20,000 nt of DNA from an uncultured virus (IMG/VR IMGVR_UViG_3300009873_000021) (taxonomy: Duplodnaviria > Heunggongvirae > Uroviricota > Caudoviricetes). The stretch covers positions 45,362 to 65,361 of IMG/VR virus record IMGVR_UViG_3300009873_000021. One strand, written 5' to 3'. Position 1 is the first letter of the stretch. Each line of letters begins with the position of its first letter. Below are positions 3,911 through 15,219 of the stretch, one piece after another. The notes under the pieces are model-generated. The model was not told the DNA's origin and searched no databases. It saw nothing but the letters and a program-made list of their open reading frames with translations. A program made the translations under genes and the position numbers.

Positions 3911-4579
3911 ATGCAAAAGAGACACAGAGACGGAGAGACGGACAGACGCAGTGCGCCGCGATCGCGGAGGCTTCTCTTTCACTTCGTCTCTTTGTTTCTT
4001 TGTCTCTTCGTCTCTTTCCTGCTGCTCGGCCTCGCTGCCGCACCCCGCGAATCACTCCACTTCACGCCGAACACAGCGACCGTCCCGGCGCTGCACGACC
4101 GGATCGCGCAGGCGCGAAAGTCGATCGACGTCGCAACCTATGCACTGAACGATTCGGCGCTGGCGAAGCTGCTGGCTCAGAAGGCGTTTGATGGCGTGAC
4201 CGTGCGGCTGATCGTCGATCGCCAGCCGCTGGGCTCGAAGTCGCCGAAAAGCTCCGCGCCGCAGCTTCACGACGCCGGTGCGACGGTGAAGCTCTTCGGC
4301 ATGTCCAGCGGCAGCGGCGGCAAGCTGCGCAACTGCAACTTCATCGTCATTGACGGCGCGTCAGAGGGCGGCAGTGTCATCGTCGCCGGCGGCCCGCTGG
4401 TGCGGTTCGAGCTGGAATCGGGCATCGGCACGATCATCGTGCTGGACGATCCAGCCGCCGTGCGGGATGCGCAGGCGGCATTCGAGGAGCTGCTCGACCG
4501 AAGTGCCCGCTTCGTCCCCCCCTACGATCAGCGCGACAGCCAGGGCAAGCCCAAACCGAAGCCCAAACCGGGGTTCTGA
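3911..4579 (+). CDS. PLD/Nuc-fold protein with a degenerate HKD motif and a probable signal peptide or membrane anchor
   Basis: ARKSIDVATYALND...GVTVRLIVD is typical of PLD_2/Nuc-like domains. The HxKxxxxD position reads NCNFIVID. Basic then hydrophobic N-terminus ending LAAA. Start codon uncertain. Confidence 0.7.
   Translation: MQKRHRDGETDRRSAPRSRRLLFHFVSLFLCLFVSFLLLGLAAAPRESLHFTPNTATVPALHDRIAQARKSIDVATYALNDSALAKLLAQKAFDGVTVRLIVDRQPLGSKSPKSSAPQLHDAGATVKLFGMSSGSGGKLRNCNFIVIDGASEGGSVIVAGGPLVRFELESGIGTIIVLDDPAAVRDAQAAFEELLDRSARFVPPYDQRDSQGKPKPKPKPGF
3918..4015. repeat. Two inverted arrays of 8-nt tandem repeats
   Basis: agagacac agagacgg agagacgg acagacgc (3918-3949) and tcgtctct ttgtttct ttgtctct tcgtctct (3984-4015). 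Confidence 0.8.
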
Positions 4580-4646
4580 AGCCCTCTTCCGGACGCCAAA
4601 CCCCCAGATTCACACCCGGGTGTATAAACCCGGCGGGCGGTTATAG

Positions 4647-4675
4647 TTGGCAAAGTACGTGACGTGACGTACTAT
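4647..4675 (+). promoter_or_regulatory. Sigma70-type promoter with an overlapping operator-like palindrome; probably a leaderless transcript
   Basis: TTGGCA (4647-4652), 17 nt, TACTAT (4670-4675), with ATG at 4682 and no SD. AGTACGT-gacgtg-ACGTACT inverted repeat at 4654-4673. Confidence 0.7.
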
Positions 4676-4681
4676 ATTTGC

Positions 4682-5527
4682 ATGAACGCCAACGAACTCA
4701 CCTTCGGAGTGGAAATCGAGTGCTACGTCCCGGTCAACAGCTTTCCCATCGGCGCGTATCACCGGGGCGTCCAGATCGCGGCCCTGCCGCCCGGCTGGAA
4801 TGCCCAGCATGACGGAAGCCTGTACACCCGCCGTCGCGGCTTTGAGGCCGTTGAAATCGTCAGCCCGATCCTCACCGGCGCGGACGGAATGCGGCAGGTC
4901 AAGGCCGCCGTGCAGTACCTCAAGTCACTGGGCGCGACGGTCAATGCGCGCTGCGGCTTTCACGTTCACATTGGCGTCGGCCAGAACCGCAAGATGATCG
5001 CCACGCTCACTTCTCTGGCGTCCAATTTCCAGTCGGCGCTGTATGCGATCACCGGCAGCCACAATCGCGAGCGCGGCAGCTACTGCCAGCCGATCCGCGA
5101 TTCGTTCCGAAACATCGGCCTGAACACCGGCGAGCTGCGCGGCAACGCGACGGATCGCTTCCACCTGCTCAACCTGTCAAATCTGATCACCGGCTCGAAG
5201 CGCACGGTTGAATTCCGAGTGTTCGCCGGAACGGTCAACTGGATCAAGGCCGCAGGCTACATCACGGTGTGCCTCGCCATGGCGGAGAAGGCCAGCAAGC
5301 TGAAGCGCCTCCCGGTGTGGAATGGCGTCACTCCCGTGGATTCCAGCACGCTGCACCGCAAGGGCGTCGGGCTGACTCAGCTGACTCGGCTGTTCTACAG
5401 CCTCGGCTGGACCAAGGGCGACCGCCAGCCGATCTTCGGCCTGCTCGCAGCGGACGATCTTCCCAGCATCGACGAATACAAGCGCGTCTTCCGCAGGCTC
5501 GCGCGGAAGTACGACGCGGGGGCATAG
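4682..5527 (+). CDS. Putative amidoligase (Amidoligase_2, glutamine-synthetase/GCS-fold COOH-NH2 ligase)
   Basis: Motifs TFGVEIE, HDGSL, EIVSPIL, CGFHVHIG, RFHLLNL and TVEFR, all apparently intact. Confidence 0.9.
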   Translation: MNANELTFGVEIECYVPVNSFPIGAYHRGVQIAALPPGWNAQHDGSLYTRRRGFEAVEIVSPILTGADGMRQVKAAVQYLKSLGATVNARCGFHVHIGVGQNRKMIATLTSLASNFQSALYAITGSHNRERGSYCQPIRDSFRNIGLNTGELRGNATDRFHLLNLSNLITGSKRTVEFRVFAGTVNWIKAAGYITVCLAMAEKASKLKRLPVWNGVTPVDSSTLHRKGVGLTQLTRLFYSLGWTKGDRQPIFGLLAADDLPSIDEYKRVFRRLARKYDAGA

Positions 5528-5575
5528 TGCCCCCGCGCAAGGGGGATTGGTTCACTCTTTCACGGAGATTCGATC

Positions 5576-6019
5576 ATGCCTTACCAGCCAAACTATCCCG
5601 AAACGGTCGCGGAGATTCTGGACGACCGGATGACGTTCAAGCCCGCGGCGCTTCGCGCGGTGCGGGAGCTGGCGCGGTCCAAGCCGTGGCAGGGAACGCA
5701 GCGCGAGCGACTGCTCAAGCTGCGCCTGTGCCTGCCGAAGCTGGCGGACGCCTACGACATTCCCTGCCCCAACCTCGCCCGCGGCGCGATCGATTGCTTC
5801 GTCCCGGCTTTCAATTCGATCTACCTGCGGCGCAGTCACCTGAGCGTCGTGAGCTTCCTGCACGAATTCTCCCACGCGCGCGGATTCGACGAACGCAAGG
5901 CGGTGCGCTGGAGCGTGAATCTGTTTCGACGCTGCTTCCCCCGGAGCTACGCAAGCTGCCGGCACGAGCGGCACATGCTGATCAATGATGCGCGACGCAG
6001 CGCAGAACGGAGCGAGTAA
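5576..6019 (+). CDS. Small zincin-like metalloprotein (HEXXH)
   Basis: 147 aa. SFLHEFSHARGFDE gives HEXXH plus a nearby Glu, preceded by two short strands (CFVP, SIYL). GGAG SD. Confidence 0.65.
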   Translation: MPYQPNYPETVAEILDDRMTFKPAALRAVRELARSKPWQGTQRERLLKLRLCLPKLADAYDIPCPNLARGAIDCFVPAFNSIYLRRSHLSVVSFLHEFSHARGFDERKAVRWSVNLFRRCFPRSYASCRHERHMLINDARRSAERSE

Positions 6020-6021
6020 CC

Positions 6022-6750
6022 ATGTGTGCGATCATCGGTTTCATTTCACGACGCAATCGACCGGCCAATCTCGGACTGATCAAGGCAATGGTCGAAGCGA
6101 ACATCGCTCGCGGTCCGCACGCCTTCGGCTTCGCGTGGGTTGACGGTGCCGGAACCCTGCGGTGCTACAAGCAGACCGGCAGGCTGACGGATCATCTGGC
6201 GCTGCTGGCGCTTGTGCGCGATGCCCGCACGATGATCGCACACGTGCGCTGGGCCACGCATGGCGACCCGCGCGAGAACGCCAACAATCATCCGCACCCG
6301 TGCGACGGTGGCTGGATGGTTCACAACGGCGTCGTCGAGAATTACGAGCACCTTGTGCGCCGCCATCGGCTGTGGCTGACGAGCGAGTGCGACAGCGAGT
6401 CGATCGCGCTGCTGATCGAAGATGCCCGCGTCGGCACCCGGCTGGGCAAGGTCGCCAGCGCGGTCCGGCGAACCGAGGGGCGGCTCGCGATGCTGGGCTT
6501 GTGGCGTCAGTCGCTGGTCGCAGTGCGCCGCGGCAATCCGCTCTCGCAGATGACGCGCGATGAAGGGCTGTATCTGGCGACACTGCCGACCGCATCTTCT
6601 GAATGGAAGCCGATGCCCGACGGCCGCGCTTCGATCTGGTGCCCGGCTCGGCGCGGGCTGCGGTCGATTATCATCCCCGTGCCGACCGAAGAGCGGGCCG
6701 CTGCCCGCGCGTGCGGTGGCGAACAGTTGTCACTCTACCGGGGAGGCTGA
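6022..6750 (+). CDS. Class II (Ntn) glutamine amidotransferase
   Basis: N-terminal MCAIIG (Cys nucleophile), RGPHAFG, HVRWATHG, NHPH, HNGVV and DSE. Confidence 0.9.
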   Translation: MCAIIGFISRRNRPANLGLIKAMVEANIARGPHAFGFAWVDGAGTLRCYKQTGRLTDHLALLALVRDARTMIAHVRWATHGDPRENANNHPHPCDGGWMVHNGVVENYEHLVRRHRLWLTSECDSESIALLIEDARVGTRLGKVASAVRRTEGRLAMLGLWRQSLVAVRRGNPLSQMTRDEGLYLATLPTASSEWKPMPDGRASIWCPARRGLRSIIIPVPTEERAAARACGGEQLSLYRGG

Positions 6751-6753
6751 GCC

Positions 6754-7011
6754 ATGCTGGATTATGCAAAGATCAAACGCCTGCGCGAGCAGCTCACGCT
6801 CACCCAGGGCGAAGCGGCCGCGAGGGCTGGATTCAAAGGCGAGAACGGCAAGGCGCGGTGGAGCGACATCGAGAATGGGCGCCACCCGGATCCGCACCTG
6901 TCCACGCTGCTGGTCCTTGCCGAGGTGCTCGGCGTCACGATCGATGAGCTGCTGGCCCGACCGGCTCAGAAACGCAAGGGATCGTCCGGAGCGCTGGGGT
7001 CGAAGGGTTGA
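6754..7011 (+). CDS. XRE-family helix-turn-helix regulator
   Basis: IKRLREQLTLTQGEAA...WSDIENG...PHLSTLLVLAEVLGVTIDELL; GGAGG SD. Confidence 0.9.
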   Translation: MLDYAKIKRLREQLTLTQGEAAARAGFKGENGKARWSDIENGRHPDPHLSTLLVLAEVLGVTIDELLARPAQKRKGSSGALGSKG

Positions 7012-7211
7012 CCGTTCGCGCCCAGCGCGAACGTCAGGGCCATGGTCTCTTTTTCGCCAAACACCACGCGTTCGACCAGGCATTCGTCGCACTGGAATAC
7101 CGGGAATGATTTCTGTCCGTCGTCGTCGCCGACCGTCAGCTCGCCCGACTGTTCAAGCGTGCGATTGCATTTGGGACAGGGGAATGTCCTATTCGCAGGA
7201 GGCACCGCCAT
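6966..7211 (-). CDS. Small putative zinc-ribbon protein
   Basis: 81 aa from ATG 7211 with CPKC...CDEC. Protein-like composition; fills the gap between the HTH and ASCH genes; overlaps the HTH 3' end by 46 nt. Confidence 0.5.
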   Translation of the reverse strand: MAVPPANRTFPCPKCNRTLEQSGELTVGDDDGQKSFPVFQCDECLVERVVFGEKETMALTFALGANGQPFDPSAPDDPLRF

Positions 7212-7587
7212 GAAGGCATTGTCTATCAGACAACCGTGGACGTCCATGATCGCCAGCGGGCGAAAGACCATTGAGACCCGCGTGTGGAAAACAGACTACC
7301 GTGGCGACCTGCTCATCTGCGCGTCGGCACGCCCAAAGATCGACGATTTGCCCACGGGGGTCGCGGTGTGCGTCGCGCGACTCGTCGACATTCGGCCAAT
7401 GACCGTAGAAGACGAGTCCGCTGCTTGCTGCGCCGTCTACCCGCGCGCCTGCTCCTGGGTGCTGGAAGACATTCGACCGATCGAACCGTTTCCGGTGCGC
7501 GGGCAGCTCGGCCCCTTCGAAGTCGAGATCCTGCAGCCGCTCCGCTTCCTCGCCCTCGCGCCGGAGCCAAGCGGGCTGTTTCGCTGA
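7210..7587 (+). CDS. ASCH domain protein
   Basis: MKALSIRQPW...GRKTIETRVWKTDYRGDLLICAS...PVRGQLG; AGGAGG SD before ATG 7210. Confidence 0.9.
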   Translation: MKALSIRQPWTSMIASGRKTIETRVWKTDYRGDLLICASARPKIDDLPTGVAVCVARLVDIRPMTVEDESAACCAVYPRACSWVLEDIRPIEPFPVRGQLGPFEVEILQPLRFLALAPEPSGLFR

Positions 7588-7647
7588 AGCGCCGGGGTCG
7601 GTGTCGTCCGCCCTCTCCGGTCTGGTGGGACCAGCGTGTCGCTCGTG

Positions 7648-8271
7648 TCACTTCCGGCGCGATTCTGCCTTCGGGTACGCCTTCGCGTCTTTCGCGATCA
7701 ACGCACGAATCTCGCCATCGAGCGGATAGACGTACCGGTGCTTACCCGGGACCTTCACCGCGCGACATTCAGAGATCTTCGGGCATCGGTCCATGTGGCC
7801 CCGGTGCTTCTTCAAGCCGGTCGCACTGACTGCCCTTGAGTGATACTCCGTGCCGTCGGCCGCGATGTACTTCACATCAGTGCGCGTGAGGCCCGTGTAG
7901 AGCCAGTTCATCGCCTGATACACAGTGCCAACGTGGCCCGCGGCCGGATCCGAGTGACTGACGATCGCTCGCAGGCCCGGGCAGTGCTTGTGCAGCAGCT
8001 TGATCGCGATCGCGACGATCCTGCTGGTGGCGACCGCGTGCTCGCCCAGGGCGAGCCTGGCCATTTCGCAAACCTCGTAGCAGCTCAAGCCCCACCGGCC
8101 ACCCAGGTCCGCACCGCCTCCCATGCCGAAGATCACAACGCCGCAGAATCTTCCTGCCTCCCACACGCCAACGCGCACGAGCTTCCCGCGTGGCATCTCG
8201 CGACGGTAGTACCATCGCTCGACTGCGTGCTTCGCAGCATCGTGCGAGCAGAAGCCCAGCTGCAGCTCACT
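7648..8271 (-). CDS. Mom-like (GNAT-fold) DNA adenine modification protein; start unresolved
   Basis: GVVIFG, EMARLAL, SRIVAIAIKLL and SHSDPAAGHVGTVYQAMNWLYTG match the Mu Mom-like pattern (D...H.G..YQA.NW.Y.G). Homology appears to begin near 8271, but in-frame ATGs occur only at 8412 and 8196. Confidence 0.8.
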   Translation of the reverse strand, partial: SELQLGFCSHDAAKHAVERWYYRREMPRGKLVRVGVWEAGRFCGVVIFGMGGGADLGGRWGLSCYEVCEMARLALGEHAVATSRIVAIAIKLLHKHCPGLRAIVSHSDPAAGHVGTVYQAMNWLYTGLTRTDVKYIAADGTEYHSRAVSATGLKKHRGHMDRCPKISECRAVKVPGKHRYVYPLDGEIRALIAKDAKAYPKAESRRK

Positions 8272-8929
8272 TGCCGCGCGGGTCGAACCGGTGGCCGCAC
8301 TCCGGGCAGGTGACGGGCTTGGGCTCGTCGAGCCGCGCCTGTGTGTCGGCGCCGACCGGTTCGAACGTCTGTTCCTCGTGGCCTGCCTCGTCGAGTTCTT
8401 CCGCTTCGCCATCGCTTTCGTCGTCGCCGGTTGGCTCGTTGAGCTCGGCGTCGAGTTCCGCGGCCAGCCTTTCGATTTCCTTCTCGAAGCCCAGGTCGGC
8501 CAGGACGCCGTGATCAAAGTCATCGGTGTCGGCGAGCTCCTGCAGCTGGCGGTCCAGCTCCGCGTCCAGCCAGCCGGCGCGCTCGCCCGTGCGGTTGTGC
8601 GCCAGCGCGAAGGCCTTGAGCTTCACCGGCGACAGGTCCGACGGGACGGCGGCGAGATACTCCCACTCCAGCCCGTGCTCGGCGCTGGTCGCGGCCTCGA
8701 AGCGGCCGTTGCCGACCTTGATCGTGCGCGTGCGCGGCTCGTACTGGATCAGCTCCTGCTGGCCGAACCGGCGGAGTGACGCGGCGGTGGACTTGATGTC
8801 GAAATCCGTGTGCGCCCGCGCGTTGCGCGAGTCCCGCTTGAGCGTGCGGGCCTCGACCGCGAAGCAGCGCAGATGCGGCGCGATGTGCGCCAGCAGCTTC
8901 GCGGGGACCTTCTTTGGCTTGGCGGGCAC
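8267..8929 (-). CDS. Phage ParB/Srx-like N-terminal domain protein with an acidic linker and C-terminal CPECG knuckle
   Basis: RNARAH, SLRRFGQ, VGNGRFEAA, ALAHNRTGE and TCPECGHRF; GTG start. Confidence 0.8.
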   Translation of the reverse strand: MPAKPKKVPAKLLAHIAPHLRCFAVEARTLKRDSRNARAHTDFDIKSTAASLRRFGQQELIQYEPRTRTIKVGNGRFEAATSAEHGLEWEYLAAVPSDLSPVKLKAFALAHNRTGERAGWLDAELDRQLQELADTDDFDHGVLADLGFEKEIERLAAELDAELNEPTGDDESDGEAEELDEAGHEEQTFEPVGADTQARLDEPKPVTCPECGHRFDPRGK

Positions 8930-8934
8930 GCTGG

Positions 8935-9111
8935 CTAGATCCGGGTCAGTATCTGCGTGAGGCTGGCGCGATCATCCACCACCTGCGGGTGCTCGCGCAG
9001 CAGGCTCTCGATGGACTGCGGATCGCTGAGCGCCTCCGCGTTCTCGACCACGCCATGTTCCGAGTTTGCGGGGAGGCTCGGCGGGTCGGGCTCTGGGGTT
9101 GAAGTCATCAT
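8935..9111 (-). CDS. Small hypothetical protein
   Basis: 58 aa from ATG 9111 with GAGGAG SD; fills the gap in the minus-strand operon. Confidence 0.45.
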   Translation of the reverse strand: MMTSTPEPDPPSLPANSEHGVVENAEALSDPQSIESLLREHPQVVDDRASLTQILTRI

Positions 9112-9132
9112 TTCCGTGCTCCTCATCACGGT

Positions 9133-10692
9133 TCATGCCAAAAGCAGCAGTTCTTCATCTTCGCGGCGGGCTCGCTCCAGCTCCAGATCGAACTGCGTGA
9201 GCGTGCGACGGTCAAAGTCGAACGCGCGGGCGTGCAGCTGTGCCATGCCGACGAGCGCCGCCGTCGCCAGTGACTTGTGATCGATCCGGCCGACGATGCT
9301 CAATCGCAGGCGAAGATCCGCGTGCACGGCGCGCACTGACGCGGCAGAGCCGTCGATGCCGCCGATGGCGCTGATCCTGCCGACGACGACGGCATAGCCG
9401 TCGCTCCTGCCGGCGATGGAGCGAATCCGTCGCGGGCGCTTGGCTGGCTTTTTCGGTGCTTCGTCGCGCGGTTGCCGGCGCGAGCGGAGCTTTCGCCCAG
9501 CCCGTCCCCATCCGCCGCCGCCGTGTGTCGCCGGTGGTGGCGGAACAAACAGACCCAGCGCGCCGGTGCACGTGGATGCGCCGCTGGCACATCCGCCGAT
9601 CGGCGTCGGTGGCGCCGAGCCGTCGTGGATAGCGCCGTGAACCGCGGCCGTGCCCGCGACCGACCCGGCCAGGGCGCCGTCAGAGGCGAGCGAAGCGTTT
9701 GCGGCCGAGCCGGCGCGCGATTGGCCGAGCAGCGCGCCGTCACCGTGAATTGACCAGATCGCCGACGAGACGCCGGCGGATGATCCGGCCAGTGCGCCGC
9801 GCAAGCCGAGCGAAGCGACCGTCGCGGCTGTGCCGGCGGATTTCGCCGCCAGGGCGCCGTTGGCCCGGATCGTCGCAGCGGCCGTGCCGGCTGCCGCGAC
9901 CGTCGCGAGCATCGCGCCGTCGACGAGTGAACTGAGAGTGCCGTTTGCGCCAGCGCTGCCGACGGCGTTGCCGGCAAGCGCGCCCTTTGCCCGGATCGTG
10001 CCGACGGCGCTGGCCGAACCGGCCGATGCGCCCGTCTGGACGCCGCGGCCGCGGGCCGTCGCGATCGCGCTGGCTGTGCCGGCCGGCGAAGCGACTGCCC
10101 CGGCCCGGCCGAAGACTGTGCCCCGGCTGTCGGATGATCCCGCGACGACGCCCGACGCGGGAAGCCGGCCGTGGATCGTGGCGATCGCGCTGGCGGTGCC
10201 GACGGATGAAGCGAGCTGGACGCCACCGCCACGGGCCGCTGCGATCGCGCTGGCGGTGCCGACGGGCGAAGCGCTCGCCCCGGCCCGGCCGAAGACTGTG
10301 CCCCGGCTGTCGGATGATCCCGCGACGACGCCCGACGCGGGAAGCCGGCCGCGGATCGTGGCCAGTGCCGTCGCACACCCCGACGCGGGCCCGGCAAGGC
10401 TTCCCTTGGCGAGCAGCGCACCGTTGACGCCGGCGCCGCCGGCCGCCGACGCGGTGATCGCGCTGGTGCCCGATGGCGGAGCAAGCAGTGCCTGCGGCAG
10501 TCGCGGGCGCGCCCGGGCTGGCGGCTTGCGCCGCTTCCAGGTCTGAAGTCGGACCAGCGCAACCGGCGGTCGGTTGCGCAGCGTGCCGACGGCGGACGCG
10601 GATGCGCCGCACACGCCGGTGATCGCGCTGGTTGATCCCCCGGCCTGTTGCTGCGCCGCGCCGGGGAGTAACGGTTGAAAGTGCCAGGCCAT
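9133..10692 (-). CDS. Ala/Gly/Ser-rich repeat virion-like protein (fibre or solenoid candidate)
   Basis: 519 aa with about 20-residue periodicity, two Arg/Pro-rich linkers and an acidic-hydrophobic C-terminus (RARREDEELLLLA). Confidence 0.65.
   Translation of the reverse strand: MAWHFQPLLPGAAQQQAGGSTSAITGVCGASASAVGTLRNRPPVALVRLQTWKRRKPPARARPRLPQALLAPPSGTSAITASAAGGAGVNGALLAKGSLAGPASGCATALATIRGRLPASGVVAGSSDSRGTVFGRAGASASPVGTASAIAAARGGGVQLASSVGTASAIATIHGRLPASGVVAGSSDSRGTVFGRAGAVASPAGTASAIATARGRGVQTGASAGSASAVGTIRAKGALAGNAVGSAGANGTLSSLVDGAMLATVAAAGTAAATIRANGALAAKSAGTAATVASLGLRGALAGSSAGVSSAIWSIHGDGALLGQSRAGSAANASLASDGALAGSVAGTAAVHGAIHDGSAPPTPIGGCASGASTCTGALGLFVPPPPATHGGGGWGRAGRKLRSRRQPRDEAPKKPAKRPRRIRSIAGRSDGYAVVVGRISAIGGIDGSAASVRAVHADLRLRLSIVGRIDHKSLATAALVGMAQLHARAFDFDRRTLTQFDLELERARREDEELLLLA
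10003..10362. repeat. Intragenic 180-nt tandem duplication
   Basis: 10097-10171 is identical to 10277-10351 (75 nt); flanks are similar at the same 180-nt offset. Outer limits approximate. Confidence 0.9.
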
Positions 10693-13891: not shown

Positions 13892-14569
13892 TCAATCCTC
13901 GGTGATGTCCAGTGCCCCGGGGGCGAACTCCGGCGTGATGTTGGCGCTGACCGCCAGTGTCATAGCCTTGTAGGCCACGCCGTCGCCGACGGCGGTGATG
14001 TCCAGCGTGCCGCCGCCCTGCGTGGTCGAGATCGTGATCACATCCGTCGCCGAGGTCTTGACCCAGTACAGCGTGCCCTCGGTGATGCCGGTGGGCAGCG
14101 AGCTGCCGAACGCCGGATAGAACGCCACGCGGTCATCCACGATCAGCGTGTGGCCGGGGATGGTGATGTTGTCGTTGGTGGCGGCGGTGAACGGACCCTG
14201 CACCGATGCGCCCAGGTTGCCGCTGTAGAGGATCTTGCCGGCGCCGCTGGCGGACGTGCCGACAGCGAAGTGCGTGAGGGTCTCGCTGCCGGCGGTGCAC
14301 TGACCGAAGGTGATGGCCGCGGCGTTTTCGACGGCGTTGGCGGTGACCGTCCAGCCGCCCGAGGTGCGCGCCACCGCCACGCGCGCGTAGCCCGTGTAGG
14401 CCGCCTCGCTGGTGGTCTGGCTGCCCCCCTCGCCCGGGTCGGCGGTGTGCAGGCTGACGTACAGATTGGTCAGCGGGCTGGTGCCGGCGTTGTCCGCGAT
14501 GTTCGCGATCGCGGTCGCCTGGAAGATAAGCTTGAGCCAATCGTTCTCGAAAGCATTGGATTTGGACAT
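13892..14569 (-). CDS. Phage virion structural protein (family often labelled tail fibre protein) with an inserted domain
   Basis: LYVSLHTADPGEGG, YTGYARVAV, NAAAITF, THFAVG and PEFAPGALDITED, a pattern recalled from small phage structural proteins. Confidence 0.7.
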   Translation of the reverse strand: MSKSNAFENDWLKLIFQATAIANIADNAGTSPLTNLYVSLHTADPGEGGSQTTSEAAYTGYARVAVARTSGGWTVTANAVENAAAITFGQCTAGSETLTHFAVGTSASGAGKILYSGNLGASVQGPFTAATNDNITIPGHTLIVDDRVAFYPAFGSSLPTGITEGTLYWVKTSATDVITISTTQGGGTLDITAVGDGVAYKAMTLAVSANITPEFAPGALDITED

Positions 14570-14610
14570 TGGTCGCCTACTTTTCTCAAACGTGTTACGC
14601 TATCGGGAAA

Positions 14611-15219
14611 ATGGGAAGACAAGCTGATCTCGCCCCGCTGCCGAAGCATCACGCCCTTGTTGATCGACCGCCGCGGTTCATGCGCAAGTACGGGCACAAG
14701 GGACCCTGCGCAAAGGTCGTCTGTTCGGTCTGTGGTCGCGCCAGGTGGTATGCCTACCGCACTCTACGGACGTGGATGGCTTCCAGGACGAAATTCACAG
14801 GCATCTGCCGGAAGTGCTGGCTGAGACTGCCCAAGTCTCGGACGTTTCGCACCACTCGAAATCCGACCGGGCGACGAATAGACCTAAACGGTTATGTGTG
14901 CCTGCAGAAGAACGCGGTCTCCGACGATGATCTGTCGCGGTTTGATCAGATGCGAGGACGGGGCGGTTTCGTCTTGGAGCATCGCTGGGTGATGGCTAAG
15001 CACCTCGGCCGCATTCTCACGCGAGAAGAGCTTGTGGATCACATGAACGGCATCAAGACGGATAACCGGATCGTCAACCTGCGAATCTACGTTCGTGGAA
15101 AGCAACAGCCAGGGAGTTGCCCCGGGCACGGCACGTACTACCACGAATGGCAGATGGCGCTGCGGCGGGTTCGCGAACTCGAATCACGCCTCAAGACGAA
15201 GCGTCGCTCGGTCGACTAG
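14611..15219 (+). CDS. Free-standing HNH endonuclease (HNH_3 type) with an N-terminal CxxC pair
   Basis: EHRWVMAKHLGR...VDHMNGIKTDNRIVNL plus CSVC...CRKC. Antisense to the operon and visibly more AT-rich. Extended -10-like TGTTACGCT at 14593-14601. Confidence 0.88.
   Translation: MGRQADLAPLPKHHALVDRPPRFMRKYGHKGPCAKVVCSVCGRARWYAYRTLRTWMASRTKFTGICRKCWLRLPKSRTFRTTRNPTGRRIDLNGYVCLQKNAVSDDDLSRFDQMRGRGGFVLEHRWVMAKHLGRILTREELVDHMNGIKTDNRIVNLRIYVRGKQQPGSCPGHGTYYHEWQMALRRVRELESRLKTKRRSVD

Follow-up and report, generated by a model that had tools for sequence, protein, structure and literature searches.

A conserved amidoligase–glutamine amidotransferase cassette with an optional zincin-like protein and an antisense zinc-ribbon gene in an uncultured virus

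Phage cassettes that join an amidoligase to a class II glutamine amidotransferase (GATase) and a GGCT cyclotransferase were reportedly described by Iyer et al. in 2009. The cassette analysed here lies on a 20,000-nucleotide stretch of an uncultured virus of the Caudoviricetes (IMG/VR IMGVR_UViG_3300009873_000021, positions 45,362 to 65,361), termed the window in the following, which is the final 20 kb of a 65,361 nt record. In the literature, covered through openly accessible text, amidoligase/GATase II/GGCT cassettes are documented for phiEco32, LUZ24-like and RIO-1-like phages (PMC5498523, PMC11318856; gene table in PMC3890496), and both partners of the ligase, GATase and cyclotransferase, have already been listed as degradation genes (PMC5498523). 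Pairs of amidoligase PHROG 2443 and GGCT PHROG 2520 are given for Clostridial prophages (PMC11318856), and an amidoligase has been annotated as a nitrogen-metabolism auxiliary metabolic gene in a Planctomycetes phage (PMC10945688; general background in PMC2938197). Amidoligase_2 genes occur commonly in phages and in integrative elements; for phage Amidoligase_2/GATase genes the text covered offered only annotations and hypotheses, and neither a tested substrate nor a zincin or Zn ribbon as partner appeared in it; a paper on Klebsiella CfmP was set aside as not relevant, as it concerns an ATP-grasp enzyme. The cassette of the window is real and conserved, and is a variant of this known phage ligase–GATase system.

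Four plus-strand open reading frames (ORFs), all intact, encode the ligase, a small HExxH protein (zincin), the GATase and an XRE regulator; they are separated by gaps of 48, 2 and 3 nt and run antisense to the S49 protease, portal and terminase genes, as an earlier, sequence-only reading had described. The ligase start was placed at ATG 4682, relatives beginning with MNANE and the GTG at 4664 falling inside the promoter. The ligase matched Pfam Amidoligase_2 (PF12224; E 2e-21, 77.5 bits, cut-off 22) and PHROG 2443, and carries the residues conserved in the family (E11-x-E13, D44-x-S46, E58, H94-x-H96, R129, N164, E177-x-R179). Matches of its structure model (predicted local distance difference test, pLDDT, 92.5) were limited to the glutamine synthetase/gamma-glutamylcysteine synthetase (GS/GCS) superfamily, with Z scores of 14.8 for YbdK (root-mean-square deviation, rmsd, 3.9 over 231 aligned residues), 13.6 for glutamate-cysteine ligase, 12.8 for GS, 12.2 for Dop, 11.7 for GmaS and 10.7 for PafA; the family spans Z 14.8–10.3, and after lengsin Z falls to 4.8. 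As modelled, the enzyme is of the GS/GCS catalytic fold with the ExE, E, HxH and ExR residues in place. The GATase matched GATase_6 (E 4.7e-10, 40 bits, cut-off 27), and Cys2, R30-G31, H74-x-R76-x-x-T79-x-G81, H101-N102-G103 and D124 were invariant in 42 aligned rows. Relatives' loci (labelled Lnnn) were collected by anchoring on ligase, zincin, GATase or Zn ribbon. Of the viral loci anchored on the GATase, 80 in all, 45 remained once redundant ones and those with too little flanking sequence were set aside, and a ligase adjoins the GATase in 44 of these 45; ligase plus GATase is the core of the cassette, and the coupling seen by the sequence-only reading holds, as do its assignments of families and catalytic motifs. 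A scan of viral contigs with the ligase as a single protein gave no match, alignments being needed.

Enzymes of the GS/GCS type activate the gamma-carboxyl of free or terminal glutamate, and GGACT/AIG2-family cyclotransferases cleave gamma-glutamyl amines. Of the ligase loci, 56 had 2 kb or more of downstream sequence; in this set, which is partly zincin-anchored, 37 held a GATase alone, 11 a cyclotransferase alone, eight neither and none both (the profile missed the cyclotransferase of L093, which Pfam found). A close cassette, L235, itself carries a cyclotransferase (Pfam GGACT, 7e-22), and this ligase group is therefore tied to gamma-glutamyl chemistry. Modelled fold and the usual exchange of GATase for cyclotransferase point to gamma-glutamylation. 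In the EgtA/EgtC pair, an enzyme of the class II GATase fold removes a glutamyl group after a GCS-like ligase has acted (PMC9103826). Because a cyclotransferase can replace the GATase and because of this EgtC precedent, the product would be gamma-Glu-NH-R and the GATase is, by analogy, likely the eraser of the glutamyl mark.

Several observations weigh against this reading. The GATase matched EgtC (TIGR03442) at E 3.8e-12 but with 46 bits stayed under the equivalog threshold of 218.65, as it did for GlmS (TIGR01135; 85.5 bits against 418.05), and the glutaminase domain of GlmS is its closer match of the two (E 1e-14, against 2e-5 for EgtC). GATase and cyclotransferase occur together in 4 of the 80 GATase-anchored loci, as they do in LUZ24-like phages (PMC3890496); strict exclusivity of the two was thereby ruled out, and since they co-occur in some loci they are not simply redundant. 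The linkage counts, moreover, share ancestry. The nearness to the GlmS N-terminal domain, the 44 adjoining ligases and the GATases with a cyclotransferase beside them would all suit a GATase that is a true ammonia donor, the ligase then amidating a bound carboxylate (Glu to Gln, in a protein, peptide or cell-wall precursor). We consider this unlikely: three of 15 ligases in the next group have no GATase within 5 kb, and the 11 cassettes with a cyclotransferase only require a gamma-glutamyl-amine product.

We therefore give most weight, tentatively and at somewhat less than even chances, to a model of reversible gamma-glutamylation in which the GATase erases the mark, the (pseudo)zincin is a dispensable helper, XRE regulates itself and the antisense Zn ribbon acts as a switch. 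With ATP, the GS/GCS-fold ligase would couple glutamate through its gamma-carboxyl to an amine of a target inside the cell, a protein being the most likely one; the hydrolase that takes the glutamate off again would be the class II GATase. The cassette would be transcribed by the sigma70 RNA polymerase of the host, either early or in the lysogen; XRE would shut its own promoter through an inverted repeat, and convergent transcription from the Zn-ribbon gene (and, in the phage of the window, from the late head operon) would turn the cassette off. The acidic Zn-ribbon protein might bind the basic ligase as an inhibitor or a substrate, and the zincin would be an optional helper, for binding or as an adaptor, rather than a required eraser. 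The purpose is likely inter-element conflict (host takeover, counter-defence or exclusion), which is the weakest step of the model. A version in which reversible protein gamma-glutamylation disables a protein of the host or of a rival element, with a GS-fold writer, an Ntn hydrolase or GGACT eraser, a (pseudo-)zincin as the adaptor for choosing the target and an inhibitory antisense Zn ribbon switched by a non-contiguous operon, is unlikely when taken whole. Promoter, operator, writer, eraser and possible inhibitor, every likely part, are packed into 3 kb (Table 1), and the question of the substrate is directly testable because natural variants of this compact cassette exist with a zincin, without one or with one that lacks the motif.

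Table 1. Coordinates of the cassette and of the features adjoining it (positions in the window)
Feature	Position	Strand	Remarks
Sigma70-like promoter	4647..4675	+	-35 TTGGCA, 17 nt spacer, -10 TACTAT; kept in relatives
Candidate XRE operator	4654..4673	.	7-bp inverted repeat AGTACGT-N6-ACGTACT over spacer and -10
Amidoligase_2, GS/GCS-fold COOH-NH2 ligase	4682..5527	+	281 aa, pI 9.9
HExxH...E protein, predicted minigluzincin-like fold	5576..6019	+	147 aa, optional, often motif-less in relatives
Stand-alone class II glutamine amidotransferase / Ntn hydrolase (Cys2)	6022..6750	+	GATase_6
XRE HTH protein, likely autorepressor, lineage-restricted	6754..7011	+	HTH_31/HTH_3 (Pfam)
Acidic CxxC-CxxC Zn-ribbon protein	6966..7211	-	81 aa, pI 4.3; overlaps converging XRE by 46 nt
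Candidate leaderless Zn-ribbon promoter	7218..7246	-	-10 GACAAT, weak -35 TGGACG; inside ASCH
Stable hairpin spanning XRE stop, no U tract	6991..7028	.	z -3.0
ASCH-domain gene, usual distal module member	7210..7587	+	Pfam

Terminase, lambda-type portal and S49 protease were all found on the minus strand of the window (Pfam), and a scan of nine ORFs in the rest of the record gave an integrase-like gene (Pfam, E 1e-5, slightly under the cut-off). The phage is likely temperate, and expression of the cassette in the lysogen is plausible on the basis of the integrase-like gene. Relatives of the zincin occur in genomes mainly of Planctomycetota (16 of 20 records), and from these relatives the host is likely a member of this phylum. 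A prophage in a Tepidisphaeraceae metagenome-assembled genome (G002) shows almost the gene order of the window, without the zincin: terminase, portal, ParB, Zn ribbon, antisense XRE-GATase-ligase, S49, capsid; G002 was also the sole match in a Zn-ribbon search over a sample of 401 genomes. Where orientation was visible in close loci, the cassette was co-directional with the late genes in six of 12 and opposed to them in the other six.

A likely temperate phage with a cassette under its own promoter would fit modification of the cell envelope (peptidoglycan precursor) for superinfection exclusion, the hypothesis published for the phiEco32/RIO-1 cassettes (PMC5498523, PMC11318856). The ligases are uniformly basic, the ligase of the window has no neighbouring second ligase or ATP-grasp enzyme such as those cassettes carry, and no test of the idea was found in the literature, which leaves it rather unlikely. 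Marginally less probable still is that ligase and GATase modify a nucleobase or nucleotide in DNA modification. The proteins are basic, neighbouring genes encode Mom, ParB, ABC-GNAT, Dam, ASCH and once an amino-acid:DNA transferase, and genes for thymidine hypermodification are found in company with those for amidoligases and amidotransferases (PMC8989533); the cassette, however, has its own promoter and runs antisense to Mom/ParB in the window and in many loci, and its position, flanked by terminase/portal genes and methylase genes, may be no more than an insertion hot spot. The median isoelectric point (pI) is 9.7 for the ligase, with 97% of 119 ligases above pI 9, and 4.6 for the Zn ribbon; it counts against reading much into this charge that this GC-rich genome encodes many proteins of high pI (above 9 for 48% of 42 rough ORFs).

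The zincin of the window carries the motif HEFSH (H96, E97, H100) with a downstream glutamate, E106. Profile searches, which had been proposed for this locus, placed the ligase and the GATase in Amidoligase_2 and GATase_6, whereas the zincin matched no Pfam, PHROG, NCBIfam or PADLOC family. Against Pfam, the best matches of 80 members were DUF6782 (E 0.0026, in five) and MPTase-PolyVal (E 0.096, in one), and no Peptidase_M78 (ImmA/IrrE) or SprT match was found among them. In the structure model (pLDDT 93), the top fold neighbours were selecase (Z 5.8, rmsd 3.2, 92 aligned), SPRTN, jannalysin, abylysin, Wss1, CapP, PprI and ArdC, all at Z <6; zincins rank top, although with every match below Z 8 and with no Foldseek PDB match at E≤0.001, and a zincin-type fold is likely on this model. 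No relative was found in annotated phages or among sequences of solved structures, a single-protein scan of viral contigs gave no match (alignments were needed), only unnamed clusters of the ESM Atlas score ≥0.9, and no longer or fused zincin was found, which is weak evidence. Two unnamed protein families are defined by this work, the zincin-like family (94 near relatives; 1281 clusters at 50% identity) and the Zn-ribbon family (357 proteins).

The 123 zincin-anchored loci and the window were reduced to 103 non-redundant loci, of which 55 had at least 2 kb upstream. A ligase lies within 2.6 kb in 33 of these 55, with a GATase in 13, a cyclotransferase in 14 and neither in six; the other 22 were counted as having none; of these, L094 carries a divergent ligase, and in L102 and L107 a ligase stands further away. 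Three settings recur: phage cassettes like that of the window; integrative elements with the order GGCT-ligase-zincin-GGCT-RuvB-like-HTH-integrase; and zincins alone beside integrases or in large phages. The association with ligases of several clades thus stood, while the zincin proved optional. The sequence-only reading had assigned to it the removal or maturation of the mark, in the place where a cyclotransferase or peptidase partner often sits. The association in 33 loci across several ligase groups, the intact motif in the window and the zincin-type fold of the model speak for such a role. In the 45 GATase-anchored loci, however, the zincin is absent from 25, has lost HExxH in ten (one being a frameshifted contig) and is intact in ten. 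It occurs in 17 of 80 ligase-anchored loci, all among the top 23 (L124–L146), which hold seven intact, nine degenerate and one frameshifted copy, with five loci lacking it and one at a contig end; it is lacking from L124, whose ligase is the closest relative, and from the prophage L206. It also adjoins cyclotransferases, so that it does not take their place, and occurs without a ligase in the third setting. Because it is absent or motif-less in most loci, an obligatory eraser role does not fit, and removal or maturation of the mark by the HExxH protein is very unlikely.

Motif-less zincins are full length, and the ratio of nonsynonymous to synonymous substitution (dN/dS) is 0.38 for the closest pair (L144/L146), indicating purifying selection; two intact pairs gave 0.26 and 0.38, and three distant, partly saturated motif-less pairs 0.27–0.69. 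The conserved role is likely binding or that of an adaptor, needing no catalysis. HExxH is kept in 126 and missing in 22 of 148 representatives. Two points run counter to a purely non-catalytic role: the motif is kept in 92 of 95 near relatives found with the protein of the window, and the zincin accompanies at least four divergent ligase groups (the close group, the GGCT elements, Verrucomicrobiota L101/L122/L123, and L094), so that catalysis matters in part of the family. The ligase and zincin trees are quick trees with many open forks and show only that intact, motif-less and absent states are interspersed. Presence of the zincin tracks that of the Zn ribbon (19 of 26 GATase-anchored loci with it, one of 19 without), which may reflect shared ancestry.

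Further zincin arrangements were seen. In L127 (5861-6301), a motif-less zincin lies on the opposite strand and converges on the ligase; in L089/L090 (5410-6411), tandem paralogues stand beside RNase H and helicase genes of a large phage with no ligase; in L093 (4056-12363), roughly 5 kb separates a ligase-GGCT-zincin set from genes for an amino acid:DNA transferase and an inositol-phosphate synthase; and in Planctomycetota elements (L035/L038 at 4484-9864, L022, L066, L116) GGCT-ligase-zincin-GGCT is followed by a RuvB-like ATPase, a MerR/AlpA-like HTH and a tyrosine recombinase.

The antisense Zn-ribbon gene, the ASCH gene and the operator-like repeat had been overlooked by the sequence-only reading. 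Of 22 close loci, 21 carry the Zn-ribbon gene (GATase 22, zincin 19, ASCH 14, XRE 4), as do 26 of the 45 GATase-anchored loci, and in 12 of 12 loci anchored on it the ligase and GATase lie on the opposite strand, a count reduced in weight by ten of these contigs having already been found by other anchors. It is always antisense to the ligase, whether the late genes run with the cassette (six loci) or against it (six). Because Zn ribbon and ASCH belong to the conserved unit and zincin and XRE are optional, the label of a self-contained four-gene unit is inaccurate; nor is a four-gene order conserved, LIG-ZIN-GAT and LIG-GAT-ZIN both occurring, with XRE in three of 45 GATase-anchored loci and four of 22 close loci. 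The Zn ribbon evolves as a protein (dN/dS 0.14–0.53 in six of seven pairs, one saturated; 357 relatives), and its start is preceded at 4–9 nt by a -10-like hexamer in 13 of 27 relatives including the window, against 1.2 expected. In the window, the -10 lies 6 nt before ATG 7211, with a weak -35, as read from the sequence, a further 17 nt away. The start codons of the Zn-ribbon (-) and ASCH (+) genes, which stand head to head, overlap in CATG (7209-7212), and there is therefore no intergenic room for divergent promoters. By sequence, the layout is that of a non-contiguous operon, in which genes of one orientation enclose an antisense gene that has its own promoter. In the S. aureus phage 80alpha pair Tha-1/Ith-1, the product of a nested antisense gene inhibits the enzyme that the operon encodes (PMC11087260). 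Our guess, prompted by the layout and the opposite charges, is that the Zn ribbon inhibits the ligase. A LysW/Pup-like carrier was rejected for lack of a conserved C-terminal Glu; the ESM Atlas gave nothing informative for the Zn ribbon, and PADLOC had no match for ligase, zincin, GATase, Zn ribbon or ASCH.

A promoter of its own had also been claimed for the cassette. The ligase promoter taken alone is within chance (one found against 0.5 expected locally, and one against 0.85 genome-wide); a TTG-N16..18-TAnnnT site nevertheless precedes the ligase by no more than 170 nt in 18 of 26 close relatives, against 1.4 expected, and in 22 of 71 loci overall, against 2.9, with controls at 4/71 on the reverse strand, 0/71 inside the gene and 2/67 far upstream, and the claim was upheld. 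Because the -10 ends 6 nt before ATG 4682 and no Shine-Dalgarno sequence is present, the ligase mRNA is likely leaderless. A hairpin 3' of the ligase stop (z < -2 in 15 of 28 close loci) is missing from the window (z -0.4). The inverted repeat over the promoter reached p 0.04 in shuffles, with a near-identical repeat in the XRE-bearing L124, and GTA stands at offset 8 from the -35 in six of six XRE loci and in none of 14 others, four of which end soon downstream and are unsure in XRE status. Because this offset tracks the presence of XRE and XRE loci occupy three places in the ligase tree, autoregulation is likely, and XRE likely represses its own promoter through the candidate operator. It is highly improbable that the zincin instead lifts repression of the cassette by cleaving XRE, as a DNA-activated protease of the IrrE/CapP type: its modelled neighbours include SPRTN, Wss1, CapP and PprI (Z 5.4–4.5), it is basic and XRE weakly matches capH (E 4e-5), but three of the six XRE loci have no zincin (L124, L142, L206), most zincin loci have no XRE, and the 80 zincin members gave no Peptidase_M78 match.

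Other genes were noted around the cassette and in related loci. Just upstream in the window (3911-4579, +), antisense to the head genes, lies the gene of a PLD-like protein (PLDc_2, E 2e-8) that has a hydrophobic segment at its N terminus and an HKD motif in degenerate form (RNCNFIVID), for which BLAST found no relative among the 123 zincin loci. A Mom-family DNA modification gene and a ParB-like gene (7648-8929, -) adjoin the module, a slot often taken in relatives by an ABC-ATPase/GNAT fusion, and an ORF with an HNH-like motif, recognised by eye, lies between portal and virion genes (14569-15219, -). The viral record also encodes a sigma-70 family factor and a peptide deformylase (G000:C1:6833-8563; L299 833-2563). 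Amidoligase_2 genes without a GATase head arrays of small genes in L166, L183, L188 and L202; in L166, L183 and L202 (5000-9800) each small gene is preceded by a repeated motif (…GCATGGCTCATGTGTG…), and these arrays lie antisense between terminase and ParB-methylase genes.

Set beside known systems, the cassette resembles EgtA/EgtC of ergothioneine synthesis in combining a GCS-like ligase with an enzyme of the class II GATase fold (PMC9103826); it has no EgtB/D/E and its GATase is far under the EgtC cut-off, so that the likeness is a works-like analogy only. With the minigluzincins (selecase, SPRTN, Wss1) and the IrrE/CapP/ArdC zincins, its top fold neighbours (Z 5.8–4.2), the zincin shares HExxH with a downstream Glu, small size and basic charge; it differs in having no HMM match, extra N-terminal helices, a WSxNLFRRCFP motif and a metal motif that is often lost. 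Like Tha-1/Ith-1, the locus has a small antisense gene with its own promoter inside an accessory operon of a temperate phage, although no homology is expected and the layout of the window is known from sequence alone. The Clostridial pairs share the ligase PHROG and the character of a small accessory prophage module, but the partner in the window is a GATase instead of GGCT, and neither zincin nor Zn ribbon is reported in the accessible text on those pairs. Closest are the phiEco32/LUZ24/RIO-1 cassettes, which likewise hold Amidoligase_2 and a class II GATase, sometimes with GGACT. A scan of flanking ORFs, with the remaining genome covered in part, gave no second COOH-NH2 ligase, ATP-grasp enzyme or GGCT, and relative to those cassettes the window has the minimal single-ligase form, with no second ligase or ATP-grasp gene adjoining, to which a zincin or pseudo-zincin, a convergent Zn-ribbon gene, ASCH and an optional XRE are added, among the head genes of Planctomycetota-type phages.

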